A stretch of DNA of 64,000 bases, taken from the NCBI GenBank assembly GCA_035632955.1, contig DASQFU010000211.1, positions 14,025 through 78,024 on the forward strand. The letters run 5' to 3'. Shown here one piece after another: positions 13,225 through 40,861 of this stretch. Below the pieces are notes generated by a model that saw only the letters and a program-made list of their open reading frames with translations, was not told the DNA's origin and searched no databases. Positions within the stretch are counted from its first letter, which is position 1, and every line of letters begins with the position of its first letter. The position numbers and the translations under genes are program-made. This DNA is from Candidatus Limnocylindria bacterium (lineage in GTDB: Bacteria > Eisenbacteria > RBG-16-71-46).

Positions 13225-13758
13225 TCATTTGAAGCTCGGTCGTGGGTAGGCGCCGCTCTGGTAGGTCGGCGCTTCGACTCCGGCTCGCTGGAGCGTGGCG
13301 TTCAGGTGGGCAATCTGGCCTTCGAGATCGTGCACGCGCTGGGCGAGCTGGGTCAGCCGGGCCGATGCCGTCCGCACCATCGCGACACCCATCTCCGGGA
13401 AATCCAGAATGGCGTCGAACAGAGTCTCGTTCGAGATGTTGAGCACGTGGGTGTGCTCGGCCGCCGCGGCGGTGAAGTGGTGCGGCTCCCCTTCCCCGAG
13501 GGCCAGCTCTCCGAACCCCTGCCCCACGATGCGGATGTCGTCCAGCGCCCGGCCCTTGTAGATCTCGACCCGGCCTTCGACGATCAGGAACGCGCCGCGG
13601 TTAGCGTCGCCCTCCTTGAACACCGTACGGCCGGCCTCGAAATGCAGCTCCCGCGAGCGGCTCGCCAGCTCCGCCAAGGCCTCGGTCGGCATGTGCGCGA
13701 ACAGTTCCGCGCTCTTCAGGATCGCGGTCTTCTCCATCAGCGTCAGCGTTTCTTCCAC
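13225..13758 (-). CDS. cyclic-nucleotide-binding-domain protein with C-terminal coiled coil (cassette copy A)
   Basis: cNMP-domain blocks LFAHMPTEALAELA...FKEGD...FLIVEGRVEIY...FGELAL. GTG 13758 aligns residue for residue with the ATG of the paralogue at 33905 (VEETLTLMEKT vs MPERMTLIEKT). Only 4 nt downstream of the TLC-HEAT stop. Confidence 0.8.
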   Translation of the reverse strand: MEETLTLMEKTAILKSAELFAHMPTEALAELASRSRELHFEAGRTVFKEGDANRGAFLIVEGRVEIYKGRALDDIRIVGQGFGELALGEGEPHHFTAAAAEHTHVLNISNETLFDAILDFPEMGVAMVRTASARLTQLAQRVHDLEGQIAHLNATLQRAGVEAPTYQSGAYPRPSFK

Positions 13759-13762
13759 GTCC

Positions 13763-16486
13763 TCACCCCGCAGCGATCGACAAGCGCGCCCACGCGGCTG
13801 TCTCGCGCACCAAGGCATCGAAGGCCGACAGATTCGATTCGACCAGCGGCAGCAGCGTCCGCTCGCGCCGCGACCCGGCGACGTACAGCGCGCACGTGCG
13901 CAGCCACGCGTCGTCGCCCTGCAGGATCTCCTCCAGCGTCCGATCGTAGTCGACGAAGTGCAGCCCGTAGCGGATCTCCGCCAGCCGGAGCTTCTCATCG
14001 TCACCCGTGTCGTCCACGAGCGGCAGGACGAGCGCACGGTGATCGGGATCGAGCGCGTTGTCCAGGTACTCGAGCGCGTTCCCGCGCAAACGGGCGTTCG
14101 CGGACACGATACCCTGATAGGCTGCGAGCATCTCTTCCGGCGGGTAGAGCAGCGACAGCCGCCGGAACACGCGGTTCAGAGCCTGCTCCATGCGCTCGTT
14201 GAGGACGATGCACAACAGACGCTCGGCGCCGCGAGCGCGGCCGATCGGGCAGGAGCGATAGTGCACGAGCGCGAACAGATAGCTCTCCGCGTCGTAGTTG
14301 AGGTCCTCGCTGATACGCCGGCGCGGAAACTGAATCCCGGACACCGAGGCGCGAATCTGATTGGCCGCCTTCAGCACGCGATAGGCGAGCCGCACCTGGC
14401 CGCGCTCGTTGTATCGGAACAACGCGTTGATCGCCTCCTGCGAGCGGATGTCGCTCAGCACTCGTGGAATGACGATGCGCAGGGAAAACGGGACCGATGC
14501 GTCGCCGAGATGATCTCCCAGGGTCCCGACCACCCGATCCCCAAACCCAGCCAACCCGGCGCGAGCCGCTGCTTCGGTGTCGCGCGACCCGAGCGCATCC
14601 ATCAACGCTGGGATGTCGCTCCGGCGCTGGGCCCGGCCGGCGCTGCGCAGCGCCGAGCGTCGCACCGCGAGATCGGCATCCCGCAACAGCGGCGTCAGCA
14701 GCTCGTGCAACCGACTGGGCGCCGCACGGCGGCCGAGCGCCTCCGCGACCACCGTACGGGTCGCGCTCTCGCCCGATTCGAGCAGGCGCGTGAGGATCGC
14801 CCGCACGCGTGGCTCGCCATCCGCCGGCGCGAACTCGGTGATGCACAGGATCGCCGCCTGACGCAGACCGACGTCGCCGGATTCGATGAACTCCTCGAGC
14901 GGCTCGACCGGGTCTTCCCCGCGCAGCGCGCCGTGGGTGCTCAACGCCTGCACTCGGACCTCCGGATCAGGGTCCTGCAACAGCGCCTCGACGCGCACAC
15001 GGTGCTCCTGGAGCAGAGCCGCGCGCACCAGCGCCAGCGCTCGTGCGCGCACGCGCGGCGAAGCGTGCCCGAGCAGAGCCGGCAGGTGCCCGGTCAGCTC
15101 CTCGGGCGCGTTCTCCTCCAGCATGGCGATGCCGTGAAGCACGATTCGCTCGAACCGGTTCTCGAGCAGGCGCGCCATCTCCTGTAGCAGACTGGCCTCG
15201 CGCAGCGACACCGTGGCTTGGCGATGGTCGTTGCTCAATCGGCGCAGGTTCAGGCCGAGCTCGCGCACGTAGCCCCGGCGCACGCCGAGCCACGCCAGCA
15301 CCCAGATCACGACCAGCGCGCCCACCAGAATCGCCAGGGAGCGGGTGCCGGCCCCGCCGAGCAGGAAGCCGACGGCCAGAATCAGAATGCCCGCGAGCCC
15401 GTCACCGGTGCGCTCCAGTCCTGCTTCGATCAAGCCCTTGGCGCGGCGCCGCAGCGCCGGCGCCAGCGGGAAGTAGAACAGCTCGCCCGCCGCCTTGTTC
15501 ACGGAATGGCGGGCGATCTGCTCCCACAACCGCGTGGCCGCGACCGCGACGAACCCGGGCACCGCCACCGTCGCGGCGGTGCCGATCAGGATTCCGGTCG
15601 GCAGCGCCGCCGCCGACCAACCGGCCCCGAAGCGCTGGATCAGCCATCGGGTGCCGAACAACTGAAGCGCTAGCGCGCCGAGGTTGCTCGCCGTATAGAA
15701 GAGTCCAATGAAGGAAGCGAGCTGGGCAGGACCGGGATAGCGCTGTTGCAGCTCGACTTTGAATTGATAGTCGAGCAACGCGGCGACCATGACCGAGCAC
15801 AGCGTCGCGAGCGCGAGAAAGCGCACGTAGGGGTGCCGGAGCGGATGCGAGGGAGCGCCTTCGTCCACGGCCGGCTCGGCGGTGGCGGGCGGCGTCCGGC
15901 GCGCGAGCTGGAACGCGCGCACCCCGGCCCATGCCTGCAGCACGGCTCCGACGACGAGCAACGTCGGCAGGGTCCAGAGGTGCGCGAGAGGTGCGGCGAC
16001 CAGGCCGCCGACCAATCCCCCGAGAATGCCGCCGACGCCGATCACGCCGAACGTTCGCTTGGCCTCGCGCGGATTCGACAGGTCGTTCGCGAACACCCAG
16101 AACTGCGCCATCAGAATCAGCCCGTAGACGTTCACCCACAGATAGAATGCAACCGGAACCCAACGGTCCTGGAGCCGGAACAGTTGCGAGAACGCGACCA
16201 GGGAGATCGCCGTCACCAGCGACGCTCCGGCCAACGTCTCCCAGACGGCGCGATCGCGCGTCACCCGCGTGAACAGCAGGGAGGCGAGCACGGTGAGGAT
16301 CCCGACGCCGAGAAATACGTAGGGCAGTAGCGTGGCCGGAAGCTGCGCCAGGAACAACGCGTCGCGAACGGTCTTGACGAGGGTGTAGGAGCCGGTCAGA
16401 CCAAAGAGAATCGTCGCCAGGGCGATCGCCCGGCGCGCCTCGGCCGGGTCGAGCTGGAGTCGAGCCGCGAGACGTTCAAACATCAC
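13763..16486 (-). CDS. TLC (ATP/ADP-translocase-like, Npt family) 12-TM transporter domain fused to a C-terminal HEAT-repeat domain (cassette copy A)
   Basis: TLC hallmark FYLWVNVYGLILMAQFWVFANDLSNPREAKRTFGVIG (compare FWxFAN...AKRFY of rickettsial/chlamydial translocases). C-terminal half has repeated DPDPEVRVQAL / DADLAVRRSALRSAG HEAT-like units. Start GTG 16486 or ATG 16483. Confidence 0.8.
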   Translation of the reverse strand: MMFERLAARLQLDPAEARRAIALATILFGLTGSYTLVKTVRDALFLAQLPATLLPYVFLGVGILTVLASLLFTRVTRDRAVWETLAGASLVTAISLVAFSQLFRLQDRWVPVAFYLWVNVYGLILMAQFWVFANDLSNPREAKRTFGVIGVGGILGGLVGGLVAAPLAHLWTLPTLLVVGAVLQAWAGVRAFQLARRTPPATAEPAVDEGAPSHPLRHPYVRFLALATLCSVMVAALLDYQFKVELQQRYPGPAQLASFIGLFYTASNLGALALQLFGTRWLIQRFGAGWSAAALPTGILIGTAATVAVPGFVAVAATRLWEQIARHSVNKAAGELFYFPLAPALRRRAKGLIEAGLERTGDGLAGILILAVGFLLGGAGTRSLAILVGALVVIWVLAWLGVRRGYVRELGLNLRRLSNDHRQATVSLREASLLQEMARLLENRFERIVLHGIAMLEENAPEELTGHLPALLGHASPRVRARALALVRAALLQEHRVRVEALLQDPDPEVRVQALSTHGALRGEDPVEPLEEFIESGDVGLRQAAILCITEFAPADGEPRVRAILTRLLESGESATRTVVAEALGRRAAPSRLHELLTPLLRDADLAVRRSALRSAGRAQRRSDIPALMDALGSRDTEAAARAGLAGFGDRVVGTLGDHLGDASVPFSLRIVIPRVLSDIRSQEAINALFRYNERGQVRLAYRVLKAANQIRASVSGIQFPRRRISEDLNYDAESYLFALVHYRSCPIGRARGAERLLCIVLNERMEQALNRVFRRLSLLYPPEEMLAAYQGIVSANARLRGNALEYLDNALDPDHRALVLPLVDDTGDDEKLRLAEIRYGLHFVDYDRTLEEILQGDDAWLRTCALYVAGSRRERTLLPLVESNLSAFDALVRETAAWARLSIAAG

Positions 16487-16532
16487 AGATCGCGCGGCGG
16501 TTGCCCACGCCCACGCTCAGCGAGGCGCGACG

Positions 16533-16561
16533 TTGACTCGGATCGGTCCCCGACCGATAGT
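16533..16561 (+). promoter_or_regulatory. putative sigma70-type promoter (TTGACT-17 nt-GATAGT) just upstream of the Omp85-like gene, copy A
   Basis: TTGACT at 16533-16538, 17-nt spacer, GATAGT at 16556-16561, ATG at 16572 with no Shine-Dalgarno. The same arrangement occurs in copy B (36700-36727). Confidence 0.3.
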
Positions 16562-16571
16562 CCACGACCCC

Positions 16572-17966
16572 ATGCATCGGCTTTCCCCAGTTGCGATCGT
16601 GCTCGCGGCCTGCTTGAGTTCGACGGTCCCGGCGACACGGGCGGAATCGTTGGCGTCCCTCGACTTCACCACCGCCGCGACGCCGCCCGATTCCACCGAT
16701 GCGCCCGGCGCCAGCGCTGCCGCGCATCCGGATCACGGGGCCACGACCGCGCCGCCCTGGAATTCGCCGCACGCCGTCCCGGTCGAGCGAACCTGGGAGA
16801 CCGCGCTGCGCCTGCCCGGCCGGATCGTGTCCCTCCCGCTGCGCGCCCTCGGGTTCGTGAGCGAGCGCTTCCTCCTCCGGGTCGAGGATGCGAGCGTGGT
16901 GCCGAAGGCGGCGTACCTGTACTCGGCGTTGCCGTACGCCGGGGTCTTCGTCACCCCCGCGTCGCTCGGCGATCGAACGGGCTTCGGCGCGACGGTCCGG
17001 ATCGTTCCACCTCCGATCCGCAACCACTTGCAGGCAGAGGTGAGCGGCAGCACGCGCAACTATAGCAGCACCCGGATCGCGGCGTCCGCGGGCCCAGCAC
17101 GGCTCGCGTATCGCTACGACTGGCGGCCCCAGGAGCGGTTCTTCGGCGTCGGGCTGCGCGCCTCTTCCGATGACACGACCGCCTACGCGTGGCAGACCGA
17201 ACAGGTCCGATTCGGGCTGGAGTACCCCTGGATGCGATCGGGGCAGCCATCGCCGCGGACGCAGGTCAGCGCCTGGGTCGGTCCGCGCAGCATCGTCGTG
17301 CGCCGCGGGCGTGACCCCGACGTGGTGTCGTTCGAGCAGGAGTTCCCGGGCCTCGCCCCAGGACAGCTCGACCGGCGCTTCGAGCATCTGGTGTACGGGG
17401 GCCGCGCACAGGTGGATCGCCGCACGGGTGCGCCGCACTGGAGCCACGGCTATCGCGTCGCGCTGCAGATCGAGCGTTTCGACCAGCCGATCGAGGCGTT
17501 CGCGCTGCGCAGCGCCGCGGCCGCGAGTCCATCGTTCACGCGTAAGCGCCTCGAAGCCGAATGGGGCTTCTCGTTCATGCGTGACCCGCGCACGATTCGC
17601 CTCGGCTGGGTCGTCGTCGACCAGGACGCTGCGTCGGACTCGGTTCTGCTGCTCCCCGACCTCGCTCGCCTCGGAGGCGCGCAGGGGCTCGCCGGCTTCG
17701 AGCCCGGCCGCTTCCACCACCGTGACGCTCTGGCGATGAAGCTCAGCTACATCTTTCCGATGGCCGAACACTTCGAGTTCGACCTCCACACGGAAGTCGG
17801 TGGCGTCTATGCCGACGTCATGGAAGACCCGCGGCTCGACGATCTCGAGACCTCCTATGGCGTGGCGCTACGGCCACGCTCGAAAGAGACCGTGCTGGGC
17901 TCGATCGGCGTCGACTGGAGTCGCGAGAAGGTGCGGATTCGCTATTCGCTCGGAGGCGTCGAATGA
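16572..17966 (+). CDS. Omp85/BamA-superfamily-like outer-membrane beta-barrel without POTRA domains (cassette copy A)
   Basis: Signal peptide MHRLSPVAIVLAACLSSTVPATRA. Omp85-like block LGGAQGLAGFEPGRF (compare GG..xRGF) and alternating beta-strand C-terminus. The TTG at 16533 used by the ORF track is more likely a -35 box. Confidence 0.65.
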   Translation: MHRLSPVAIVLAACLSSTVPATRAESLASLDFTTAATPPDSTDAPGASAAAHPDHGATTAPPWNSPHAVPVERTWETALRLPGRIVSLPLRALGFVSERFLLRVEDASVVPKAAYLYSALPYAGVFVTPASLGDRTGFGATVRIVPPPIRNHLQAEVSGSTRNYSSTRIAASAGPARLAYRYDWRPQERFFGVGLRASSDDTTAYAWQTEQVRFGLEYPWMRSGQPSPRTQVSAWVGPRSIVVRRGRDPDVVSFEQEFPGLAPGQLDRRFEHLVYGGRAQVDRRTGAPHWSHGYRVALQIERFDQPIEAFALRSAAAASPSFTRKRLEAEWGFSFMRDPRTIRLGWVVVDQDAASDSVLLLPDLARLGGAQGLAGFEPGRFHHRDALAMKLSYIFPMAEHFEFDLHTEVGGVYADVMEDPRLDDLETSYGVALRPRSKETVLGSIGVDWSREKVRIRYSLGGVE

Positions 17967-19303
17967 TTCGTGCGCGGAGTCGCCTCCGGACGATCGCGTC
18001 GGTCGCCCTGCTCGCAGGCTGCGGGTGGCGGCTCGCCGCCGCGGCTCCGGAGCAGCGCGCCGAATCGCCTGAGCCCACCGACATCTCGTATTACTACGAC
18101 CTCCTCGAGCACACGGTGTTCCGCCCGGTCGCGCGAGCGCTCGATCCGTCATTGCTGGTGCGAAAGGTCACGGGGCGGCGCCGCGAGGCGTTCAACGTCG
18201 ACGAGCAGGACCAGGTCCGGCTGCCGAGCACCTGGTGGCAGCCGCGGCTGGGTTTCCAACCGCTCACGGTTGCGGACATGATTGCCGGCCTGGGACCGAC
18301 GACCGGTCCCGCCCGCGGCAAGTGGCATGTCACGCGCGCCAAGACGCAAGGCGTCACGCCCGGCTTCTTCATCAAAGACGCGACCGGGGCGCGCTTCATT
18401 CTCAAGTTCGATCCGCCGAATCAGCCCGAGATGGCGACCGGCGCGGGCGTCGTCGCGGCCTACCTGTACTGGGCCGCGGGATTCAACGTGCCGAACGACG
18501 TCATCGTCTCCTTCCGCAGCGAGGATCTGGCGATCGTCGAGGGAGCGCTCTACACCGATCCGCACGGGCACAAGAAACCGATCTCGCGGGAGTTCCTGGA
18601 GCAGATCCTTGCCCGCGTCGCGCGCAGCTCGGACGGGACGTATCGCGCGCTCGCGAGCCGGCTCCTGGCCGGCAAGCCGCTCGGACCGTTCGAATATCGC
18701 GGCCGCCGCCGTGACGACCCCGAGGATCTCATTCCGCATCAGCTCCGTCGCGAGCTGCGCGGCTTGTGGTCGATTGTCGCTTGGACCAATCACGCCGATT
18801 CCCGCGGGCCGAACTCGCTCGACGTGTGGGTCACGGACGGCGACCGCTCGTTCGTGCGTCACCATCTGATCGATTTCAACGGCTGCCTCGGATCGGGCTC
18901 GATCGCGGCGCGCTCGCCCCAGACCGGTAACGAATACTTCGTGGACTATGGCGTGATGGCGCGCTCGCTCCTGACGCTGGGCCTGCGGCGTGCGCGCTGG
19001 GAGACCACGGTCGACCCGCAGCTCCCGAGCATCGGCTTCATCGAAGCCTCGGCGTTCGACCCGGAAGGGTGGCGGCCCGACTATCCGAATCCCGCCTTCG
19101 ACGAACGAACGGAGCGCGACGTGCGGTGGGGCGTGCGGATCGTCGCCGGTTTCACGGACGAGCACATCCGCGCGGCGGTGGAGCAGGCGCAGTTCTCCGA
19201 TCCACGGGCGACCGAATACTTGACCCAGGTGCTGATCCAGCGGCGCGACATCCTCGTCCGGCGCTGGCTCATCGAGCCTCAGACCGCCACCACGACGCGT
19301 TGA
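17963..19303 (+). CDS. lipoprotein with PI3K/PI4K-like (protein-kinase-like) catalytic core (cassette copy A)
   Basis: ATGA overlap with the barrel gene. Lipobox VALLAGC. Motifs RFILKFD (Lys148), NHADSRGPNSLD (Asp279/Asn284) and HHLIDFNG (Asp304). Paralogue at 38145..39476. Confidence 0.7.
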   Translation: MIRARSRLRTIASVALLAGCGWRLAAAAPEQRAESPEPTDISYYYDLLEHTVFRPVARALDPSLLVRKVTGRRREAFNVDEQDQVRLPSTWWQPRLGFQPLTVADMIAGLGPTTGPARGKWHVTRAKTQGVTPGFFIKDATGARFILKFDPPNQPEMATGAGVVAAYLYWAAGFNVPNDVIVSFRSEDLAIVEGALYTDPHGHKKPISREFLEQILARVARSSDGTYRALASRLLAGKPLGPFEYRGRRRDDPEDLIPHQLRRELRGLWSIVAWTNHADSRGPNSLDVWVTDGDRSFVRHHLIDFNGCLGSGSIAARSPQTGNEYFVDYGVMARSLLTLGLRRARWETTVDPQLPSIGFIEASAFDPEGWRPDYPNPAFDERTERDVRWGVRIVAGFTDEHIRAAVEQAQFSDPRATEYLTQVLIQRRDILVRRWLIEPQTATTTR

Positions 19304-19897: not shown

Positions 19898-19925
19898 ACT
19901 CCGGCCTCCTGTTCCATGGCTTCGA

Positions 19926-30938: not shown

Positions 30939-31142
30939 GCGGGCGGCGTTCGAGGACAGGCGAGGGATGCGGAACTCCTGAGGCTTCACGAGGCCGGCGA
31001 TGGTAGGTGCCTCGTTCCGTGAGGTCAAGCGCCGCGACGTTCCGTCGACGCGACGTTCCGTGTGACGCGACGCCGTCGCGACGTTCCGCCGGTGATATCT
31101 TGCGCTGCACGCCCGATCGTTCGGACCCACTCCCGCCCACTG

Positions 31143-33365: not shown

Positions 33366-33905
33366 CTACTCGCGGCTTCCAGATCGGCGATTGGGTTCGG
33401 AGAGAGGGGATTCGGGTGTTGCGAGGCCCGATTGCTCGAGCGTCTCGCTGCATTGCTTGAGCTGGGCCTCCAGCTGCAGCACCCGCTCGGTCAGCCGATG
33501 CACCTGCAACGATTGCGCGCGCGATAGGGCGAGGCCGAAATCCGGAACATCGAGCAGCACCTCGACCACGTCGTCGCGCTGAATGTTGAGCACATGCGTC
33601 TCTTCGCGCGCGATTCCCGTGTACTGGTGCCCGGCGTTCTCCTCGAGGAAGAACTCTCCGTGCGCGGCACCCGAGCGCAGGGGTCGGACGACCGCGTCGC
33701 CTTTGCGCAGCTCCACCAGCCCGTCCACGACGATGAACGTGCCCTGGTCCTCGTCGCCTTCGCTGAACAACACTTCATCCGGGTCGGCATGAATCTCGGT
33801 CGCGCGCGCCGCGAGCTGTGCGAGGGCTTCGGTCGGAACGCTGGAGAACAGGTTCGTCGACTTGAGGAAGACCGTCTTCTCGATCAGCGTCATTCGCTCG
33901 GGCAT
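33366..33905 (-). CDS. cyclic-nucleotide-binding-domain protein with C-terminal coiled coil (cassette copy B)
   Basis: Paralogue of 13225..13758, with blocks LFSSVPTEALAQLA...FSEGDEDQGTFIVVDGLVEL. Starts 3 nt after the TLC-HEAT stop. Confidence 0.8.
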   Translation of the reverse strand: MPERMTLIEKTVFLKSTNLFSSVPTEALAQLAARATEIHADPDEVLFSEGDEDQGTFIVVDGLVELRKGDAVVRPLRSGAAHGEFFLEENAGHQYTGIAREETHVLNIQRDDVVEVLLDVPDFGLALSRAQSLQVHRLTERVLQLEAQLKQCSETLEQSGLATPESPLSEPNRRSGSRE

Positions 33906-33908
33906 GCG

Positions 33909-36626
33909 CTACCCTGCTGCGAGTGCGTTTTGGGCCCACGCGGCGGTCTCTCGCACGCGTGGATCCTCGGCTTGAAGGTTCACCTGGACGAGCTCGGCGA
34001 GCGCGCGCTCACGGCGGTACCCGACGACGTAGAGAGCGCACACGCGTAGCCAGGAATCGGTGCCGTTCAAGCATTCCTGAAGTGCCTCGGCGTAACTTGG
34101 CTCCCGCAAGCCGAAACGCTCCTGGGCGCGTGGCAACTGTTCCTCGTCCGGAGTGTCGTCGAGTAGGGGCAGCACCAACTCTCGATCCTCGGCCGACAGA
34201 GCCGTCTCCAGGTACTCGAGCGCGTTACCCCGGAGATGTGGCTTGCCCGAACCCCGGCCTCGATACGCAGCGTAGATGGTATCGGGTGGGTAGATCAGAG
34301 CGAGACGCCGGAAGACCCGATTCAACGTCTGGGCCAGTCGCTCGTCCAGGACCGCCGAGAGAAACGTTTCGGCGCTGCCTCCTTCCACGGACGTGAACGC
34401 ACGCCGCTGCAGGAACCCGAGCCAGTACGTGCGGACTTCGTATTCCAGGTCTTCTCGAACCTGTTCGCTCGGGAAAGCGATCTCCGGATTCGCGCGTCGG
34501 ATGCGATTGCAGGCCTTGAGAACGCGATACGTGAGCACCATGTCGGACCGGTCCCGGAAGCGGAACAAAGCGAGGATGGATTCGGAGGTCGGTATCTCCC
34601 GCAACACGCGCGGAATCTCCCGCCGCACCTCGATCCGGACGCCGGTATCGACGAGCAAGTCCGCGAGCGTGCCGACCACGATCTCCCCCATCGCTGCCAG
34701 GCCTGCGCGCGCCGCCCGTTCCGTCTCGGATTTTCCCAGCGCCTCGATGAGCATCGGGATGTGCTCGCGACGCTTACCGCTCGCTGCGGCCCGCAAGGCT
34801 GCATTTCGCACCTCGAGATCCGGATCGGCGAGCAGCGGCGTCAGCAGATCGTGCAATCGGCTCTGCGTCGGCGCGACAGCCAGCGCTTCCACGGCCTCGA
34901 TCCGCCGCGCGGTCGCGCCGTCCCGTAGACGCGGTTCGAGGATGTCATGCACACGCGCGTCCTCTTCCGCCGGCGCGAACTGGACCAGGCATTGAAGTGC
35001 GGTCGCGCGCAGCCGCGGATCCTGGTCGTCGAAAAACGGGTCCAACGTCCTGGTGGGCCGTCCCCGCCCCAAAGCGCAGGTCGCCCGCAGCGCACCGAGT
35101 CGAACCGCGGGATCTTCGTCGTTCAGCAACGCACGCACCTGCTCGCGCGCCGAGTCGGTCTGAAATGTGGCGATCAGCTCCAGCGCGCGACCCCTCACCC
35201 GGGCGGAGGCGTGCTCAACCAATCGTGGCAGCCGCTTCTCGAGCAGAGGCATCGCGCTGTCTTCGAGCAGATCCATGCCGTGCATCACGACCCGTTCGTA
35301 GGGACTGTCGAGCAGCCTCACCATCTCTTTGAGCAGCCGGCGCTCGCGCAGCCGAATCGTCATCTGTTCGGGGTCCACGTGCAGGCGGTTCAGGGTTCGC
35401 GATAGCTCACGCTCGTAACCGCGGCGCAGCTCGTACCAGGCCACGAGCCAGATCGCGACCACCACCACGATTAGCACCGCGATCGTCCAGGTGTCCACGC
35501 CGAAGGCGATCCCGATCCCGAGAATCATCAGCCCCGCGATGCCGTCTCCCACGCGCTCGAGTCCCGCCTCGATCACCGCTTTCGCGTGACGCCGCAGCGC
35601 CGGCTCGAGCGGGAAATAGAACAGCTCGACCGCCGCCTTGTTCAGCGACAGGCGGATGATCTGGTCCCAGAGCCGCGTGCCCAAAACCGTCAGCGCGCCC
35701 GGTGCCAGCAGCGTCGCCACGGCGCCGATCCCGAGGCCAGCCGGCAGCACCAACGAGGACGAAGAAGCGCCGAGCGTGCTCAGCGACCAGCGCGTGACGA
35801 TCATCTGCACCGCCAGTGCGCCCAGGTTCATTGCGGTGTAGAACATTCCGAAGAACTGCGCGAGCGCGGTCCTCGTCGGATAGCGATTCTGGATCTCGAC
35901 TTTGAGCTGGTAGTCGAGCACTCCGGTGATGATCACCGAGCACAGCGAGGCGATCGCGAGCCAGCGCACGTAGGACGAGCTCCAGGGAGATTGCGTTCGT
36001 TCGGGTCTGGCGGCCACGGCTTCTGCCGGTGTGTGGCCGCGACGCACGCCGGTCACGATCAGCGGAACGACGAGGGCGACCAGCAACGCCGCCGAGAACG
36101 CGAGCGCATCGAGGCCCAGCGCGGGCCCGAGGGCGCTCGCCGTCAAGCCTCCGATCAGACCGCCGAGAATCCCGCCGCCACCGATCATTCCGAAGATGCG
36201 CTTGGCGAGTCGCGGATCGGAGATGCTGTTCGTGAACGCCCAGAACTGGGAGACGAGGATGAGACCGTAGACGTTCACCCACAGGTAGAAGGCAACCGGC
36301 AGCCAGCCCCTCTCACTTCTGAAGAAAGGTGCGAAGGCCGCGAGCGACACCGAGGCGATCGCGGCCGCCGCAACCAGCGTGACCCAGGTTGGAACCCGGC
36401 GCGTGAGCTTCGCCACGACCTGGGACACGAGCAGCGTGAGGCCGCCGACGCCGAGATATACGTAGGGCAGCGATTGCGCGGGCAACCGGGAAAGGTAGAG
36501 GGAATCGCGCGCCGTCTTGACCAGCGTGTAGGAGCTGGTGATCCCGAACAGCACGAGGGCGAGCGTCAAGGCATGTCGCAGCTCGTGCGGCTCCAGCTCC
36601 AGCCGTCGAGCCAGACGTTCGATCAT
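33909..36626 (-). CDS. TLC (ATP/ADP-translocase-like) transporter domain fused to HEAT repeats (cassette copy B)
   Basis: FYLWVNVYGLILVSQFWAFTNSISDPRLAKRIFGMIG plus HEAT units DEDPAVRLGALRA, DQDPRLRATALQCL and DPDLEVRNAALRAA. Colinear with 13763..16486 over the full length. Confidence 0.8.
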   Translation of the reverse strand: MIERLARRLELEPHELRHALTLALVLFGITSSYTLVKTARDSLYLSRLPAQSLPYVYLGVGGLTLLVSQVVAKLTRRVPTWVTLVAAAAIASVSLAAFAPFFRSERGWLPVAFYLWVNVYGLILVSQFWAFTNSISDPRLAKRIFGMIGGGGILGGLIGGLTASALGPALGLDALAFSAALLVALVVPLIVTGVRRGHTPAEAVAARPERTQSPWSSSYVRWLAIASLCSVIITGVLDYQLKVEIQNRYPTRTALAQFFGMFYTAMNLGALAVQMIVTRWSLSTLGASSSSLVLPAGLGIGAVATLLAPGALTVLGTRLWDQIIRLSLNKAAVELFYFPLEPALRRHAKAVIEAGLERVGDGIAGLMILGIGIAFGVDTWTIAVLIVVVVAIWLVAWYELRRGYERELSRTLNRLHVDPEQMTIRLRERRLLKEMVRLLDSPYERVVMHGMDLLEDSAMPLLEKRLPRLVEHASARVRGRALELIATFQTDSAREQVRALLNDEDPAVRLGALRATCALGRGRPTRTLDPFFDDQDPRLRATALQCLVQFAPAEEDARVHDILEPRLRDGATARRIEAVEALAVAPTQSRLHDLLTPLLADPDLEVRNAALRAAASGKRREHIPMLIEALGKSETERAARAGLAAMGEIVVGTLADLLVDTGVRIEVRREIPRVLREIPTSESILALFRFRDRSDMVLTYRVLKACNRIRRANPEIAFPSEQVREDLEYEVRTYWLGFLQRRAFTSVEGGSAETFLSAVLDERLAQTLNRVFRRLALIYPPDTIYAAYRGRGSGKPHLRGNALEYLETALSAEDRELVLPLLDDTPDEEQLPRAQERFGLREPSYAEALQECLNGTDSWLRVCALYVVGYRRERALAELVQVNLQAEDPRVRETAAWAQNALAAG

Positions 36627-36699: not shown

Positions 36700-36727
36700 T
36701 TGACAGAAAGCGACTTTAGTCTAGATT
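36700..36727 (+). promoter_or_regulatory. putative sigma70-type promoter (TTGACA-16 nt-TAGATT) abutting the Omp85-like gene, copy B
   Basis: TTGACA at 36700-36705, TAGATT at 36722-36727, GTG start at 36736 with no Shine-Dalgarno, in a locally AT-richer patch. Parallels copy A. Confidence 0.35.
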
Positions 36728-36735
36728 GAGTCGCT

Positions 36736-38148
36736 GTGCACTTCTGGAGCGCGTTTGCTGCGACGTGCGTGTGGGTCGCGCTGATGTCGATCGACGCCGG
36801 GGCGGCGGTGGAAACCGCCCCGGCGAATCCATCGTTGCTCGCGGCGGCCGACACGACACGGAACCGTACATCGGCTCCGGCGACCGAAGCCGGCGATCTC
36901 GCCGTGACTTCCGATGTCCCCTGGAATCCCCCCCGCGCGCTCTCACGCCGGCATCCATGGGAGCAGGTACTGCAATTTCCCGGGCGCATCGTGACGGTGC
37001 CGATCTCGGCGCTCGGCTACACCGTGGAGCACGGCCTGTTCTGGATGGAGAAGACGAGCTTCGTCACCAAGGCCACGTTCGCGGCGCGCGATCTGCGCGG
37101 GCGTGCCGGGCTCTCCGTCCGGCCTGCGAGCCTCGGGGATCGGACCGGCCTGGGCGGGACCATCCGCATGGACACACCCTTCTTCGGGGGCGCGCTCAAG
37201 AACCGTGTCAGCACCGAGCTCAGCGGCAGCACGCGCAAGTACAGCGGCGTGGTCGTCACCGTGAAGGGCGAGCCTGGACTTCTCGAGTACGGACAGGAGT
37301 GGCGGCCGCAGGATCGTTTCTACGGCCTCGGGATCGAATCTGTTCGTGACAGTGTCAGCGACTACGCGACCCAGAGCCAGTTCGCGCGCGCGCGCTTACG
37401 CTGGACATGGAACCAGGAGAAACGGGAGGAGCCGCGCGCGGCGTTCGCGATCTGGGCCGGGACGCGCAATGTCGTGACCCGCAACGGCCGCGGGGATGGG
37501 ACGGTTTCCTACCACGTCCGTTTTCCCGATCTCGGCGCCGCCACGCTCGATCGCCATGTCGAACACTTCATCTACGGCACCAGCCTCGCGAGCGATTGGC
37601 GGGTCGGCGAACCCCACTGGAGCCAGGGCTGGCGGGTGTGGCTTTCCGCCGAACGCTACGATCGACCGATCCATCCGCTGGCGCTGCGCGTCGGGCAACC
37701 GCGCGGCGCGCAGTTCACACGCTACGACGTCGAAGTCGAGACCGGAAAATCGTTCCTGCGCGACCCGCGCACGCTCCGGCTGCTCGTGCGGATGACGAAT
37801 CAGGAGGTCTCGTCCGGTGGCGATCGTTTCCTGATCTCCGATCTGCCCAAGCTTGGCGGGCGCGAAGGCCTGTCGGGATTCGAGGCCGGCCGATTTCACG
37901 ATCTCGATCTGTTGGCGACCAAGATCTCTTACATCTTCCCGCTGGTGGGGCGGCTCGAACTCGATGTTCACACCGAATGGGGCGCCGTCCATTCGAACGT
38001 TTGGGAAGACCTGAAGTTCAGCACGCTGAGGAACTCGTTCGGCGTCGCCCTGCGCGGGCGTCTCAAGCACACACCCTTCGGCTCGATCGGTGTGGACTTC
38101 AGTCCCGAGAAAACGCGGTTACGCTTCTCCGTGGGGAGGGTCGAGTGA
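36736..38148 (+). CDS. Omp85/BamA-superfamily-like outer-membrane beta-barrel without POTRA domains (cassette copy B)
   Basis: Paralogue of 16572..17966. Signal-like N-terminus MHFWSAFAATCVWVALMSIDAGAA, LGGREGLSGFEAGRF block, beta-strand-rich C-terminus. Confidence 0.65.
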   Translation: MHFWSAFAATCVWVALMSIDAGAAVETAPANPSLLAAADTTRNRTSAPATEAGDLAVTSDVPWNPPRALSRRHPWEQVLQFPGRIVTVPISALGYTVEHGLFWMEKTSFVTKATFAARDLRGRAGLSVRPASLGDRTGLGGTIRMDTPFFGGALKNRVSTELSGSTRKYSGVVVTVKGEPGLLEYGQEWRPQDRFYGLGIESVRDSVSDYATQSQFARARLRWTWNQEKREEPRAAFAIWAGTRNVVTRNGRGDGTVSYHVRFPDLGAATLDRHVEHFIYGTSLASDWRVGEPHWSQGWRVWLSAERYDRPIHPLALRVGQPRGAQFTRYDVEVETGKSFLRDPRTLRLLVRMTNQEVSSGGDRFLISDLPKLGGREGLSGFEAGRFHDLDLLATKISYIFPLVGRLELDVHTEWGAVHSNVWEDLKFSTLRNSFGVALRGRLKHTPFGSIGVDFSPEKTRLRFSVGRVE

Positions 38149-39476
38149 AGCCCGCGATCATTCTCGGCGCGCTGCTCGGGGCCCTCGGCTGGACCGACAC
38201 GCTCGTGGCTCAGCCGCCCTCGGGCGCAACCGAGATGCCCAGAGAACGCGACTACTCGTACATCTACGACATGCTCGACCACAGTCTCGTGCGACCCTTT
38301 ACGCGGGTGTTCGATCCCGCCCTGCTGTTGCGCAAGGTCGTGGGGCGCCCGCGCCAGGCCGCCAACGTGGGCGAAAACGATCAGGTGCGCCTCCCGAGCA
38401 CCTGGTGGCAGCCGCGGATCGGCTTTCGGCCGGTCACGGTCGAGCAAATGATGAAGGGGCCGGGATCGAGCGCCGGGCCCGCGCCGGGAAAATGGACGGT
38501 CACCAAAGCCAAGACCCAGGGCGTCACCCCCGGCTTCCAGATCGAGGACTCGAAGGGCGATAGGTTCATCATCAAGTTCGATCCCACCACGTTCCCCGAG
38601 CTCACCACTTCGGTCGACGTCATCGGCTCGCACCTGTTCTGGGCGGCCGGGTACAACGTTCCTCACAACACCATCGCCACGTTCAAAGCCGAGGATCTCG
38701 CGCTCGACAAGGATGCCACCTTTACCGACGCGCTCGGCAAGAAGCAGCCAATGACGCCGGAGTACCTGACTCAGCTCCTCGACCGGGTCGCTCGCCTGCG
38801 CGACGGCACGTACCGCTGCCTCGCGAGCAGGTTCATCTCCGGCAAGCCCCTGGGTCCGTTCGAGTACTACGGGCGGCGCAACGACGATCCCGAGGACCTG
38901 ATTCCGCACGAGCTGCGGCGCGAGCTGCGCGGGCTGTGGACCGTGTGCGCGTTCCTCAACCATGCCGACAGCCGCGGGCCCAACTCGCTCGACATGTGGG
39001 TGACCGAGAACGGCCGCTCGTTCGTGCGCCATCACCTGATCGATTTCGGCTCGATCCTCGGTTCGAGCGCCATCGGTCCGCGCTCATACGTGACCGGCAC
39101 CGAGTATTACGTGGACTTCAACGTGATTGGCCAGCAGGCGGCCACGATCGGGCTGCGGCCGTTCGACTGGGAGCGGGTCGTGGATCCGAAAATTGCCTCG
39201 ATCGGATTCGTCGAGGGGAGGGTGTTCGACCCGGCCGGCTGGCGGCCGGACTACGCGAACCCGGCATTCGACGAGCGCACCGAGCGCGACATCCGTTGGG
39301 GTGCGAAGATCGTCGCCGGTTTTACCGACGAGCACATCCGGGCCGCCGTGAAGGCCGGGAGCTACTCCGACCTGCGGGCCTCGGAGTACCTGACCCAGGT
39401 GCTGATCCAGCGCCGCGACAAGCTGGTTCGCCATTGGCTCGGGCCGGACTACCGCGTACCTTACGATACGCGATGA
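38145..39476 (+). CDS. exported protein with PI3K/PI4K-like kinase core (cassette copy B)
   Basis: GTG 38145 forms a GTGA overlap with the barrel gene stop. Signal peptide VKPAIILGALLGALGWTDTLVAQ. Motifs RFIIKFD (Lys144), NHADSRGPNSLD (Asp275/Asn280, nt 38961-38996) and HHLIDFGSILG (Asp300-Phe-Gly). Confidence 0.7.
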   Translation: MKPAIILGALLGALGWTDTLVAQPPSGATEMPRERDYSYIYDMLDHSLVRPFTRVFDPALLLRKVVGRPRQAANVGENDQVRLPSTWWQPRIGFRPVTVEQMMKGPGSSAGPAPGKWTVTKAKTQGVTPGFQIEDSKGDRFIIKFDPTTFPELTTSVDVIGSHLFWAAGYNVPHNTIATFKAEDLALDKDATFTDALGKKQPMTPEYLTQLLDRVARLRDGTYRCLASRFISGKPLGPFEYYGRRNDDPEDLIPHELRRELRGLWTVCAFLNHADSRGPNSLDMWVTENGRSFVRHHLIDFGSILGSSAIGPRSYVTGTEYYVDFNVIGQQAATIGLRPFDWERVVDPKIASIGFVEGRVFDPAGWRPDYANPAFDERTERDIRWGAKIVAGFTDEHIRAAVKAGSYSDLRASEYLTQVLIQRRDKLVRHWLGPDYRVPYDTR

Positions 39477-40861
39477 GGTCGATCGTGTGGGCGATTCCCT
39501 TCCTGCTGGCGCTGGCCGCCTCTTCGGGCTGCAGCCGCGCTCACATCGGCGTATACGAAGGGACGTTTCCTGCCCCCGGGGCGATCACCGCGTTCGACAA
39601 GCGGTGGAGCTCGTTGCCACGCGAGAGCAAGGCGGGCGCGCCTCCGTTCCTGGTTCCGGGCAGCACCAATATGGTGCGACACGACGTCGGCACGGTCGCG
39701 GTTCCGCCCGAGGCGGACAGCATCATCGTCATCGTCTATGGGGACAACCGGCCCGGCTGGCGGATGATGACGACCGCGTGGGGGCTGCCCGCGGTTCTCA
39801 ACATCGGCAGCTCCGATCCCAAGCAGTTCCTGTGGGCGATGGCGAACATCCCGGTGATGCTGGTGCAGGCGGTCGTACCACGATTCGACCTGTTCCACGA
39901 CCTGATGAGCGCCTTCTGGACGCGCCGATTCTCGGGAGGCGCCGAGCGTCGGGTCATCGAAGCGATCGAGAAGGACCTGCCCGCGAACTTCGTCGTCAAC
40001 ACGGGTGATCTGGTCGAGAACGGCCGGAGGGGCCTGCAATGGGAGGATTTCGTCCGCAAGCACGAACATCTGCGCAGGCGGGTTCCGTTTCTGGCGGCAC
40101 CGGGAAACCACGAGCGCCTGTGGTCGAAGGAGGGCCAAGCGAACTGGGATGCGGTGATGGGCCCTCCCGCCCAGCCCGATCGTTACTGGTTCGCAGTCGA
40201 CCTGCAGGAGTCGATCGCCCGCTTCGTGTTCCTCGATTCCGAGCTGCTGGCGGACCCGCGCGACCACTATCCGGACTCGCTGCAATCGGCGCTGTCGAAC
40301 GAGCAGTTGCGCTGGGCGGATTCGGCGCTCGCCGTGCCGGCGCGCTGGCGATTCGTCATCCTGCACCATCCGCTGGTCACGAGCGGGCACTACTTGTCCG
40401 ACTGGGCGTCCGACGAGTCGAGTCCGGTCGAAACCAGGCGCCGTGGGCGCCTGCTCGAGATTTGCCGGCGGAGGGGCGTGACGGCGGTGCTCGCCGGCCA
40501 CGAGCACCTCTACCAACGCACCTTCGTGCGCGGCCGGGACGGACGTGGCTTCTGGCATATCGCGACCGGCGGCGGCGGATCCCCGCTCTATCGCATCTCC
40601 GAGTACGAGCGCAAGGCGGCACTCGCCTTGACGCTGCCGGATAGCTCGGTCGTGACGTGGAACCGCGCGCGCTCGATGTACCACTATTGCCGCCTCATCA
40701 TCGTGCGACGCCCCAAACCGGGCGAGGATGCGGTGGTACTGGAGGTCAACCGTGTGCGGGACAACGGACAGATCACCCGCATCGACTTCGTGCACCTGAA
40801 CGAGCTGCCTCCGGAGGAGAAACGTGAACGCATCCCCGGGCAACCGCCCCCCGGCTTCTAG
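39473..40861 (+). CDS. lipoprotein metallophosphoesterase (calcineurin-like)
   Basis: ATGA overlap with the upstream gene. Lipobox-like LALAASSGCS. Metallophosphatase motifs VYGDNRPG, NTGDLVENG, APGNHE, ILHHP and LAGHEHLY. Confidence 0.8.
   Translation: MRSIVWAIPFLLALAASSGCSRAHIGVYEGTFPAPGAITAFDKRWSSLPRESKAGAPPFLVPGSTNMVRHDVGTVAVPPEADSIIVIVYGDNRPGWRMMTTAWGLPAVLNIGSSDPKQFLWAMANIPVMLVQAVVPRFDLFHDLMSAFWTRRFSGGAERRVIEAIEKDLPANFVVNTGDLVENGRRGLQWEDFVRKHEHLRRRVPFLAAPGNHERLWSKEGQANWDAVMGPPAQPDRYWFAVDLQESIARFVFLDSELLADPRDHYPDSLQSALSNEQLRWADSALAVPARWRFVILHHPLVTSGHYLSDWASDESSPVETRRRGRLLEICRRRGVTAVLAGHEHLYQRTFVRGRDGRGFWHIATGGGGSPLYRISEYERKAALALTLPDSSVVTWNRARSMYHYCRLIIVRRPKPGEDAVVLEVNRVRDNGQITRIDFVHLNELPPEEKRERIPGQPPPGF

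Follow-up and report, generated by a model that had tools for sequence, protein, structure and literature searches.

The 64,000-nucleotide stretch of DNA analyzed here (the window) contains two old copies, A and B, of a conserved and uncharacterized gene module. In each copy, the gene for a POTRA-less Omp85-type barrel is directly followed by that of an exported kinase-like protein, and genes for a TLC/NTT transporter and a cNBD-like protein are located next to them on the opposite strand. As a tentative reading, we propose that the module carries out extracytoplasmic, ATP-dependent phosphotransfer, with TLC antiporters supplying the nucleotide and phosphatases resetting the system. If this is true, these soil bacteria supply ATP to enzymes that act beyond the cytoplasm.

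Organization of the two copies

The features of both copies are listed in Table 1. The coordinates and strands that the initial annotation had assigned to the eight open reading frames of the two cassettes were all confirmed. It had described the same four genes per cassette; these are indeed shared, but copy B extends past position 39476 with B5 and B6, which are located downstream of B3 and B4 on the same strand and were absent from that annotation. The A2 stop (13763) and the A1 start (13758) of copy A are 4 nt apart, the divergent intergenic region between A2 and A3 spans 85 nt, and A3 and A4 share an ATGA overlap (17963-17966). In copy B, the gap between B2 and B1 is 3 nt, the divergent intergenic region has 109 nt, and a GTGA overlap joins B3 and B4 (38145-38148), followed by an ATGA overlap between B4 and B5.

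Table 1. Genes and predicted promoters of copies A and B
Feature	Coordinates	Strand	Basis or remarks
A1, cNBD-like protein, 177 aa	13225..13758	-	PF00027; small, cytoplasmic
A2, TLC/NTT + HEAT fusion, 907 aa	13763..16486	-	PF03219 + HEAT_2
Predicted sigma-70-like promoter, TTGACT-17-GATAGT	16533..16561	+	Ends 10 nt before A3 start codon
A3, POTRA-less Omp85-type barrel, 464 aa	16572..17966	+	AF2/Foldseek
A4, exported kinase-like lipoprotein, 446 aa	17963..19303	+	Catalytic motifs, AF2, lipobox LLAGC
B1, cNBD-like protein, 179 aa, A1 paralogue	33366..33905	-	PF00027
B2, TLC/NTT-HEAT fusion, 905 aa, A2 paralogue	33909..36626	-	PF03219 + HEAT_2
Predicted sigma-70-like promoter, TTGACA-16-TAGATT	36700..36727	+	Ends 8 nt before B3 start codon
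B3, POTRA-less Omp85-type barrel, 470 aa, A3 paralogue	36736..38148	+	Barrel-family HMM
B4, exported kinase-like protein, 443 aa, A4 paralogue	38145..39476	+	Signal peptide; lipobox Cys absent
B5, exported metallophosphoesterase	39473..40861	+	PF00149; lipoprotein-like signal (...AASSGC)
B6, short single-domain TLC/NTT transporter, 468 aa	40824..42230	+	PF03219

A predicted, conserved promoter-like site is located directly 5' of both barrel genes. It is the sole such site between positions 13000 and 19600 for copy A, where shuffled sequences gave 0.3, and between 33100 and 42700 for copy B. The sequence CGTTGACT from the copy A promoter region was present in 6 of 10 orthologous intergenic regions.

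The similarity between the two copies is far above chance. BLASTP revealed 41% identity for the cNBD-like proteins (E 3e-44), 51% over 901 residues for the TLC-HEAT fusions (E 0), where roughly half had been estimated, 44% for the barrels (E 7e-122), and 63% for the kinase-like proteins (E 0). At the DNA level, identity was only patchy (64-71%), and the reported identical string of 24 nt was found at both sites (18224-18247 and 38394-38417). Each copy has nearer orthologues in other Eisenbacteria MAGs than its partner in the window; the copies are thus old paralogues and not a recent DNA repeat, as had been concluded initially.

Properties of the encoded proteins

The AF2 model of A3 (pLDDT 83) is a 16-strand Omp85-type barrel, and Foldseek matched it to the barrels of BamA, TamA, and Sam50 (E 7e-10 to 1e-8, TMt up to 0.71). 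POTRA domains are not present in this model, which contains two N-terminal helices instead, in agreement with the earlier designation as a POTRA-less Omp85-like barrel. A signal peptide is followed by a disordered linker, the helices (residues 74-123), and the barrel. A3 itself had no match in Pfam, several of its homologues match PF01103, and B3 was recognized by the barrel-family HMM with an E value of 1e-181. The barrel clade is characterized by the loop-6 motif L-x-G-[FY], in which the usual Arg is not conserved, and by an invariant C terminus (...GGVE) from which the aromatic terminus is absent.

In A4, K148, D279-x4-N284, and D304-F-G/N are invariant in two alignments that reach down to about 35% identity. 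The motifs follow the canonical order of beta3 Lys, catalytic loop, two strands, and DFG. Judged from these residues, the catalytic site (Lys/D-x4-N/DFG) is complete, and A4 is a putative kinase. Its AF2 model is of moderate quality (pTM 0.77, pLDDT 73). The best 50 PDB matches were kinases or pseudokinases throughout; the best 26 were Fam20 kinases of the secretory pathway, and ePKs, Bud32, and APH ranked next, all with low TM-scores (0.22-0.33) and large rmsd. A PI3K/PI4K-like core had been suggested, but this assignment is not specifically supported and was set aside: the match probability was 0.2-0.5 for VPS34 versus 0.9-1.0 for Fam20, and A4 matched no model in Pfam or NCBIfam, including the Pfam kinase models. 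A4 and B4 belong to a new protein-kinase-like family of about 3,100 clusters. The N terminus was signal-like in 227 of the 245 N-terminally complete members, and many members are lipoproteins. The signal, the kinase motifs, and the kinase-only PDB matches bear out the view of an exported kinase-like protein, whereas its description as a lipoprotein holds for copy A only, since B4 (identical in sequence to P0053) has a plain signal peptide that lacks the Cys.

B5 matched PF00149 with 55.5 bits and contains all five metallophosphoesterase motifs (GDN, GDLV, GNHE, LHH, and GHEH). Its nearest solved relatives are of the purple-acid-phosphatase type (3zk4 and 1ute).

The TLC, HEAT, and cNMP_binding assignments of the initial annotation pass the Pfam gathering scores. 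A2 scored 48 bits with PF03219 (gathering score 21) and 73 bits with HEAT_2; the corresponding values for B2 were 49.8 and 74 bits. The membrane domain of A2 comprises about residues 1-405, which harbor all of its hydrophobic segments, and the C-terminal HEAT repeats match alphaRep/PBS-HEAT proteins. B6, with about 10 hydrophobic segments, matched PF03219 (51 bits), MFS_1 (39.5 bits), and the 'ADP,ATP carrier protein 1' structure 9j3n (E 3e-7). Against TIGR00769, the TLC proteins of the window scored 41-52 bits (A2, 52 bits), far under the cutoff of 387, which places them at a distance from the characterized exchangers. In the proposed model, they would carry nucleotides and move ATP outward.

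A1 and B1 matched PF00027 with 52 and 43.5 bits (gathering score 27.5), and no hydrophobic segments were found in A1. Their phosphate-binding cassettes (GE...PHHF in A1, GE...GHQY in B1; canonical, GE...R[ST]A) are degenerate and lack the canonical phosphate-binding Arg. Of the cNMP sensor proposed earlier, the domain thus stands, but control by cyclic nucleotides is doubtful.

Gene neighborhoods and proposed function

Only loci flanked by 5 kb or more of sequence on either side entered the counts. The barrel gene was directly 5' of the kinase gene in all 16 Eisenbacteria-type, all 7 Latescibacterota/Krumholzibacteriia-type, and 17 of the 18 Acidobacteriota-type loci, and the two genes overlapped in most loci. 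Of the Eisenbacteria-type loci, 15/16 had a TLC gene no farther than about 8 kb away, as did 4/7 of the Latescibacterota-type and 3/4 of the other distant loci. Only 2 of the 18 Acidobacteriota-type loci had one nearby, so barrel and kinase can occur without an adjacent transporter. The TLC linkage occurs in at least three distinct gene orders. Even a locus with an only 39% identical kinase contains, in order, PAP2, Omp85, kinase, Metallophos, TLC, TLC-HEAT, and cNBD. B5 orthologues are located 3' of the kinase gene in most Eisenbacteria loci, the metallophosphoesterase gene being translationally coupled to that of the kinase, and B6 orthologues follow the metallophosphoesterase gene at other loci. 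In co-directional clusters, a short TLC gene comes directly after those for barrel, kinase, and metallophosphoesterase on the same strand. Barrel followed by kinase is thus the near-universal core, to which TLC, metallophosphoesterase, and PAP2 are added in shuffled orders. The initial annotation had named a lack of co-localization elsewhere as evidence against its reading; synteny is instead conserved, and homologues were co-localized in Eisenbacteria, Latescibacterota, Zixibacteria, Gemmatimonas, some Acidobacteriota, and unclassified MAGs, in varying orders and orientations.

The kinase-like enzyme would be Sec-exported, either soluble or lipid-anchored, and is coupled translationally to the barrel, which may be its dedicated partner in the outer membrane, serving as anchor, as export or assembly device, or as substrate platform. 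Because the periplasm lacks its own source of ATP, the module would recruit inner-membrane TLC/NTT antiporters that take periplasmic ADP, and possibly phosphate, in return for cytoplasmic ATP. One antiporter would be plain, and the other would carry a cytoplasmic HEAT domain and a small cNBD-like partner, presumably for gating. Such a delivery of ATP to the periplasm, already hypothesized in the initial annotation, agrees with the gene content; the characterized PamNTT1, in contrast, is asymmetric and functionally biased to ATP import (PMC1951785). The exported metallophosphoesterase, and PAP2 in relatives, may reset the system by removing or recycling the transferred phosphate. Relatives encode PAP2::barrel and kinase::PAP2 fusions, and their loci contain a neighboring lipid kinase and GT-C glycosyltransferases; these features tentatively suggest that the target is a lipid- or glycan-linked component of the envelope rather than a protein. 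Some extended Eisenbacteria clusters have further phosphate-related genes (PPK2, a YegS-type lipid kinase, PhoU_div, and PHO4), which fits the proposed reading. The recurrent linkage of the core to TLC and phosphatase genes and the promoter-like sites before both barrel genes likewise speak for it.

An unlikely alternative is a scavenging module, in which exported phosphoesterases degrade external nucleotides or organophosphates, TLC proteins import nucleotides, PHO4/PhoU handle the phosphate set free, the kinase-like protein serves in nucleotide binding or salvage, and access across the outer membrane is through the barrel. In its favor, the characterized NTTs are all importers (PMC5381601, PMC1951785), extended clusters include PPK2, Ppx-GppA, PhoU_div, and PHO4, and B5 is similar to purple acid phosphatases and to a diphosphonucleotide phosphatase. 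However, PstS/PhoX-type genes were not found, an intact periplasmic kinase site would still require a phosphoryl donor, and the invariant core consists of barrel and kinase, with many loci having no detected neighboring hydrolase or transporter. In addition, the barrel matches BamA, TamA, and Sam50, and Omp85 barrels are known as insertases or translocases and are not known as nutrient channels.

We consider it improbable that the barrel exports the kinase-like protein to the surface or medium in a TPS- or type-Vd-like manner, to act on other cells or extracellular substrates, with the TLC operon being separate. The tight coupling of both genes everywhere would fit such a secretion pair, as would the many lipoproteins in the family, which could be surface-exposed, and the fusions in which PAP2 precedes the barrel like a passenger, reminiscent of Omp85 fusions of the PlpD type. 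Yet this PAP2 has 4-5 hydrophobic membrane segments before an internal signal-like segment and is therefore not a soluble passenger, the barrel has no POTRA domain, and the kinase-like protein has neither a TPS domain nor another Pfam domain. Extracellular ATP would be scarcer still, and the recurrent TLC linkage and the translational coupling of the phosphatase would be left unexplained. It is very improbable that NTT-HEAT/cNBD and Omp85/kinase operons are functionally uncoupled neighbors by shared Eisenbacteria ancestry: NTT-HEAT plus cNBD does stand alone in many bacteria (PMC5381601), as do barrel and kinase in most Acidobacteriota-type loci, but co-localization recurs across the groups named above with varying orders and orientations, co-directional clusters have the short TLC gene right behind those of barrel, kinase, and metallophosphoesterase, and adjacency by chance would be expected at around 1% (our estimate, not computed), TLC genes being rare.

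Comparison with known systems

The initial annotation knew of no described system of this composition, and we found no literature description of the whole module (barrel, kinase, transporters, and phosphatase); its TLC-HEAT plus cNBD half, however, is a published, uncharacterized architecture that is also known from cyanobacteria and chlamydiae (Major, Embley & Williams 2017, Genome Biol Evol, PMC5381601). The TLC/NTT-HEAT layout is identical, and the cNMP_binding gene likewise lies a few nucleotides downstream. The paper links this pair to none of the other components of the module (Omp85 barrel, exported kinase-like protein, metallophosphoesterase, second NTT), and the cNBD cassettes of the window are degenerate. 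The TLC proteins of the window belong to the same Pfam family (TLC) as the chlamydial, rickettsial, and plastid exchangers Npt1, PamNTT1, and AtNTT1 (TC 2.A.12, TIGR00769) and, like them, have an MFS-like membrane domain with multiple spans. They are very distant from these, the host, a soil MAG with a large genome context, is of the free-living type, and the proposed outward movement of ATP would reverse the characterized physiological mode.

The POTRA-less 16-strand barrel is shared with noNterm Omp85 proteins (Heinz & Lithgow 2014, PMC4104836) and Leptospira paralogues (PMC11358297), from which the clade in the window differs by its loop-6 motif and C terminus, a conserved two-helix N-terminal region, and an obligate kinase-like gene partner. 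As in TpsB/TpsA and PlpD (type Vd), the gene of an Omp85-family barrel is paired or fused with that of an exported enzyme. Membership of the barrel-kinase pair in either group was rejected, together with the two-partner-secretion logic suggested earlier: POTRA, TPS domain, and patatin passenger are absent.

Among the eukaryotic kinases of the secretory pathway (Fam20C, Fam20B, and POMK), Fam20B and POMK phosphorylate glycans, and an ER/Golgi ATP/ADP exchanger supplies ATP to the lumen. Sequence homology of A4 to Fam20C, Fam20B, or POMK was undetectable, without a Pfam Fam20C match and with TM-scores of at most 0.33, and the system in the window would place a putative kinase in the bacterial periplasm with an outer membrane barrel as partner. 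Fam20 kinases are nevertheless the top structural matches of A4, and the analogy is one of logic only: a kinase fold in a compartment incapable of making ATP combined with an ATP/ADP-type antiporter.

Organization and ancestry of the two cassettes

The eight open reading frames (ORFs) of the initial annotation, which had proposed two four-gene cassettes, were all present, with the strands and junctions described there. [quoted passage not shown] Cassette B proved to have six genes rather than four, being continued by a metallophosphoesterase (MPE) and a short TLC gene. The loci most closely orthologous to copy A, locus L002 among them, keep both of these genes, so copy A is a reduced version.

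Features of the two cassettes, their surroundings and selected homologous loci (window positions unless a locus is named)
Feature	Position	Strand	Remark
Cassette A (A1 to A4)	13225-19303		
Cassette B (B1 to B6)	from 33366		
B5, exported metallophosphoesterase	39473-40861	+	ATGA overlap with kinase gene
B6, short single-domain TLC transporter	40824-42230	+	after MPE gene
Sigma-70-like site TTGACT-17-GATAGT	16533-16561		directly before barrel start; sole such site in cassette A
Sigma-70-like site TTGACA-16-TAGATT	36700-36727		directly before barrel start; sole such site in cassette B
Barrel C-termini	17955-17963; 38137-38145		
Cyclic beta-1,2-glucan synthase-like protein, 2,863 aa	22104-30695	-	between the cassettes; GH94 supersandwich, catalytic and glucoamylase domains
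PMT_2-type GT-C glycosyltransferase	31062-32420	+	~1 kb from cassette B
OpgC-like acyltransferase	46580-47782		
Two ORFs converging on cassette A	19319-20314; 19926-21503	-	no Pfam/NCBIfam match
DUF4331, N-terminal, then C-terminal part	59420-60103; 60173-60673	+	
Extended phosphate-gene cluster	L072 1793-8979, 19003-20059		
PAP2::Omp85 fusion (P0225)	L072 8972-11059		
GT87 GT-C glycosyltransferase (Vicinamibacterales)	L045 9500-10654		directly after kinase gene

The proteins of the two copies share 41% (cNBD), 51% (TLC-HEAT), 44% (barrel), and 63% (kinase-like) identity, and in this window of 67% G+C their DNA is merely 64-71% identical, in patches. The identical 24-mer reported initially was found in both copies. 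A neighbor-joining tree built on the kinase-like proteins of 58 loci placed A4 and B4 in separate Eisenbacteria clades, each of which holds orthologues from other metagenome-assembled genomes (MAGs); several other MAGs also have two loci. This identifies the two copies as old paralogues, as had been supposed; a recent segmental duplication was rejected on the low DNA identity together with the placement of the paralogues in different clades.

The sigma-70-like sites are so close to the start codons that near-leaderless transcripts may be predicted, and of the 10 orthologous intergenic regions compared, 6 also contain CGTTGACT. Scans against Rfam and for tRNAs gave no match, and the cassettes thus contain no riboswitch; a scan for terminators revealed no excess over chance.

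The cassette flanks (MatE, oxidoreductase, cyclic-glucan synthase, GT-C glycosyltransferase, and OmpA) provided no clear functional clue. The cyclic-glucan synthase-like and OpgC-like proteins both relate to periplasmic glucans and have no established tie to the module. A small membrane protein may be encoded by one of the two ORFs converging on cassette A, and a lipoprotein (LLLLSCAS) by the other; because the mechanical ORF list shows them overlapping, their true starts are uncertain. The two DUF4331 parts probably stem from one gene that is split or frameshifted, or from an error in assembly. The NCBI record label (exact match P0001; also P0053) is "Candidatus Limnocylindria bacterium" (Chloroflexota), and nearly all named relatives are Candidatus Eisenbacteria. 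The bin is probably mislabeled, because the closest relatives of the module as well as Omp85, OmpA, and lipoproteins point to a diderm Eisenbacteria-like organism.

Properties of the encoded proteins

The catalytic residues of the kinase-like protein (K148, D279-x4-N284, and D304-F-G/N) follow the canonical order, with K148 in a beta-strand as the beta3 lysine, then the catalytic loop, two strands, and DFG. The catalytic K, D, N, and D are invariant in 32 close and 26 distant sequences, down to ~35% identity, an observation made on alignments and hence independent of any structure model. The AlphaFold2 (AF2) model (pLDDT 73, pTM 0.77) was compared by Foldseek with the PDB, and the top 50 matches were all kinases or pseudokinases (E values from 1e-4 to 4e-2, TM-scores of 0.17-0.33). 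The first 26 corresponded to Fam20A, Fam20C, or Hydra Fam20 (E values from 1e-4 to 4e-3), followed by eukaryotic-type protein kinases (ePKs), Bud32, APH-type small-molecule kinases, and, weakly, VPS34. On the basis of this pLDDT and these TM-scores, a bilobal kinase fold is predicted with just moderate confidence. Signal-like N termini were present in 93% of the N-terminally complete family members, many of which have lipoboxes. The exported kinase-like lipoprotein of the initial annotation thus holds for A4, with its lipobox LLAGC, and needs amendment for B4, which has a plain signal peptide. We conclude that these are predicted exported enzymes with an intact kinase-type active site.

Pfam and NCBIfam searches with A4 and B4 gave no match, and a Pfam scan of the 32 close and 26 distant relatives returned just stray sub-threshold HipA matches and one PAP2 fusion. 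Searches against the sequences of solved structures, with a single sequence and two profiles, were equally negative. The family, as judged from these searches, is new to Pfam and NCBIfam; an exhaustive profile search retrieved 3,113 clusters at 50% identity, 1,003 of them at E <= 1e-30. Most members have 545-590 amino acids, including an extra C-terminal region that the window proteins lack. Membership in the PI3K/PI4K, Fam20, and HipA kinases was rejected. The PI3K/PI4K-like core proposed initially found no Pfam PI3_PI4_kinase match, and VPS34 appeared only at ranks 42-50 (probability 0.2-0.5). The Fam20 proteins were the top structures, with TM-scores of 0.22-0.33, 8-12% identity, and no Pfam match; because these TM-scores are low, the modeled likeness is a resemblance in fold class only and not family membership. 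HipA_C and HipA_2 matches (E values of 0.026 and 0.058) were sub-threshold, each in one member of the 26 scanned, and one UniRef entry is named "HipA domain-c...".

An AF2 model of the barrel built with 32 homologues (pLDDT 83) has 16 strands, and its best PDB matches in Foldseek were the barrels of BamA, TamA, and Sam50 (E values from 7e-10 to 1e-8, TMt up to 0.71). The part N-terminal to the strands comprises a signal peptide, a disordered linker, and two long helices and contains no POTRA domain, in agreement with the Omp85-like barrel lacking POTRA that had been annotated. Since the linker and helices replace POTRA, the modeled protein is assigned to the noNterm class of Omp85 barrels, which is functionally uncharacterized (PMC4104836). 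A3 and B3 match neither PF01103 nor any other Pfam or NCBIfam family, and the sequence search against solved structures gave no match; PF01103 is carried by several barrel homologues of 44-54% identity and by distant partners. In loop 6, LGG-xx-G-L-x-G-[FY] is conserved, the Arg position of the Omp85 motif (V/I)RG(F/Y) is variable, and an invariant R-F follows four residues later. Outer-membrane beta-signals usually end in an aromatic residue, whereas this family ends in an invariant Glu, almost always as ...GGVE.

The TLC, HEAT, and cNMP_binding calls of the initial annotation were borne out by Pfam: TLC and HEAT_2 in A2 and B2, and cNMP_binding in A1 and B1. Scores for TLC (PF03219, TC 2.A.12) were above the gathering score of 21 in A2 (48.3 bits), B2 (49.8 bits), and B6 (51.2 bits). 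TIGR00769, which represents the characterized NTP/NDP exchanger group, scored 41-52 bits vs. a cutoff of 387, placing the proteins outside this group, and the match to PDB 9j3n was weak (E value of 3e-7). Judged by sequence, the window proteins are only remote relatives of the characterized exchangers. All hydrophobic segments of A2 and B2 are within the first ~405 residues, and the C-terminal ~500 residues form an alpha-repeat region (HEAT/PBS-type) that is presumably cytoplasmic, because a signal peptide is absent. Both copies have the architecture described by Major et al. 2017 (PMC5381601), in which a nucleotide transporter (NTT) domain with C-terminal HEAT repeats is directly followed by a cNBD gene; it is widespread, monophyletic, and uncharacterized, and is known also from cyanobacteria and Chlamydia. 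We found no later functional work on NTT-HEAT in the searchable literature.

The cNBD proteins scored 52.4 (A1) and 43.5 (B1) bits for PF00027, vs. a gathering score of 27.5, and their phosphate-binding cassette deviates from the pattern G-E ... R-[ST]-A, with E. coli CRP as the reference. The Arg of this cassette contacts the cyclic phosphate. The window type has His instead (PHHF, GHQY), and the type found in co-directional clusters has Thr in place of the Glu and has lost [ST]A. The cNMP-like sensor proposed initially thus retains its domain and lacks the canonical cassette. Because the cassette is degenerate, a true cAMP/cGMP sensor was rejected, and binding of cyclic nucleotides is not to be taken for granted.

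The MPE B5 scored 55.5 bits vs. 21.5 for PF00149, and its translation contains the five metal-binding motifs (GDN, GDLV, GNHE, LHH, and GHEH). Its nearest solved relatives are of the purple-acid-phosphatase type, and it lacks the Tyr ligand that purple acid phosphatases typically have.

Conservation of gene linkage

A kinase-profile scan of the GTDB species representatives identified 70 loci, labeled Eisenbacteria, Latescibacterota, Krumholzibacteriia, Acidobacteriota (Vicinamibacterales, Terriglobia, and Bryobacteraceae), and Gemmatimonas. Protein searches added Zixibacteria, unclassified MAGs, and one MAG labeled Gammaproteobacteria, and every carrier seen is an uncultured MAG. Linkage was counted in an HMM survey of fetched loci with at least 5 kb of flank on both sides. 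The barrel gene lies directly upstream of the kinase gene in 16/16 Eisenbacteria-type, 7/7 Latescibacterota-type, 17/18 Acidobacteriota-type, and 4/4 other distant loci, and the Omp85 protein without POTRA is an obligate partner of the kinase-like enzyme. A TLC gene within ~8 kb was observed in 15/16, 4/7, 2/18, and 3/4 of these loci, respectively.

Four gene orders were found: the divergent one of the window (cNBD<-TLC-HEAT / barrel->kinase->MPE->sTLC, where sTLC is the short TLC), a fully co-directional one (barrel-kinase-MPE-sTLC-TLC-HEAT-cNBD-PhoU_div-PHO4), TLC-HEAT-cNBD-barrel-kinase, and barrel-kinase-TLC. A locus with a kinase of only 39% identity keeps PAP2-Omp85-kinase-Metallophos-TLC-TLC-HEAT-cNBD. 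Shuffled order with membership kept across phyla is a classic signature of functional coupling, and the co-localization expected in other genomes was thus observed. Recurrently, and in part through translational coupling, the kinase-barrel pair is associated with exported MPEs, with PAP2 phosphatases, and with either one or two TLC transporters, one carrying the HEAT and cNBD-like appendages on the cytoplasmic side.

PAP2 phosphatases are fused to both core components (P0225, P0204, P0241, and P0444), as PAP2::barrel and, separately, as kinase::PAP2 (signal peptide, kinase, linker, and PAP2). The PAP2::Omp85 ORFs contain, between the membrane PAP2 and the barrel, a signal-peptide-like segment with an AxA site (...LVRPALAQA/PARD...), which suggests either that signal peptidase cleaves a polyprotein here or that the protein is tethered to two membranes.

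In one Eisenbacteria clade the upstream region also holds PPK2, DUF1206, a second PAP2, and a YegS-type lipid kinase; such genes precede the barrel gene in L072-L074 and in five or six further loci. The extended Eisenbacteria clusters (L072, L013, L015, L018, L021, L032, and L060) are rich in phosphate genes; L072 contains Ppx-GppA and two thymidylate-kinase-like genes, PhoU_div is downstream in seven loci, and in L072 it is followed by PHO4. The GT-C neighbors in the window and in Vicinamibacterales may point to a substrate linked to a glycan or to polyprenyl phosphate.

Functional model and comparison with known systems

We tentatively favor a model of extracytoplasmic phosphotransfer derived from these gene associations. 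With ATP or another NTP as the donor, the kinase-like enzyme would transfer phosphate in the periplasm or at the outer membrane; it would be fed by ATP(out)/ADP(+Pi)(in) exchange through the TLC proteins, the phosphatases would reverse or recycle the modification, and the HEAT and cNBD-like parts would gate the ATP supply from the cytoplasm. The fusions with PAP2, together with the lipid kinase and GT-C neighbors, make a lipid- or glycan-linked envelope molecule our somewhat likelier guess for the substrate than a protein. Against the model count the remote kinship of the TLC proteins, the import bias documented for the characterized transporter PamNTT1 (PMC1951785), and the lack of a nearby TLC gene at most Acidobacteriota loci.

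A module for the scavenging of phosphate or nucleotides, to which the PPK2/PhoU/PHO4 context lends weight, is unlikely. Less probable still is a secretion pair in which the barrel exports a kinase effector; the two-partner-secretion logic of the initial annotation had to be abandoned, as the barrel has no POTRA and the kinase-like proteins have no TPS (Haemagg_act) or any other Pfam domain. A mere neighborhood of uncoupled genes is very improbable, and, TLC genes being rare, their chance adjacency is implausible by our own, uncomputed estimate.

A premise of Gram-negative envelope biology is that there is no ATP beyond the inner membrane, and outer-membrane processes are hence explained by trans-envelope machines or stored folding energy. 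Here, an exported enzyme whose kinase site is intact is conserved together with exported phosphatases and antiporters of the ATP/ADP type, which makes a periplasmic ATP supply directly testable. That diderms of several soil phyla export ATP to the periplasm via TLC/NTT antiporters, and thereby drive an outer-membrane kinase/phosphatase cycle with a dedicated Omp85 partner, is less likely than not; if true, it would be an exception to the rule of an ATP-free periplasm. The module also offers a first functional context for the widespread NTT-HEAT/cNBD transporters, for Omp85 barrels without POTRA, and for a new exported kinase-like family of ~3,100 clusters at 50% identity. Should ATP export prove wrong, the gene linkage would still stand as a solid, unreported genomic association.

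The NTT-HEAT and cNBD half of each cassette and the noNterm class of the barrel are known parts. The initial annotation knew of no described system with this composition; its NTT-HEAT and cNBD half is published, and for the module as a whole no description was found in the searchable literature, including that on periplasmic kinases and ATP supply, NTT-HEAT function, and NTT1 structure. Nucleotide-binding residues of NTT proteins were likewise given in none of the papers retrieved. Comparison with anti-phage defense systems (PADLOC) gave only domain-level matches, for cNBD and HEAT, and none for the barrel, kinase, MPE, or short TLC. Because the module belongs to none of the systems checked (two-partner secretion, PI3K/PI4K, Fam20, HipA, and PADLOC defense) and no description was found, we rate it as a categorically new candidate system, with a function proposed by genomic inference only. 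The closest functional analogy is provided by the eukaryotic secretory-pathway kinases, which act in an ATP-importing lumen; if the proposal is true, the module would be their bacterial counterpart, by shared logic and not by homology.
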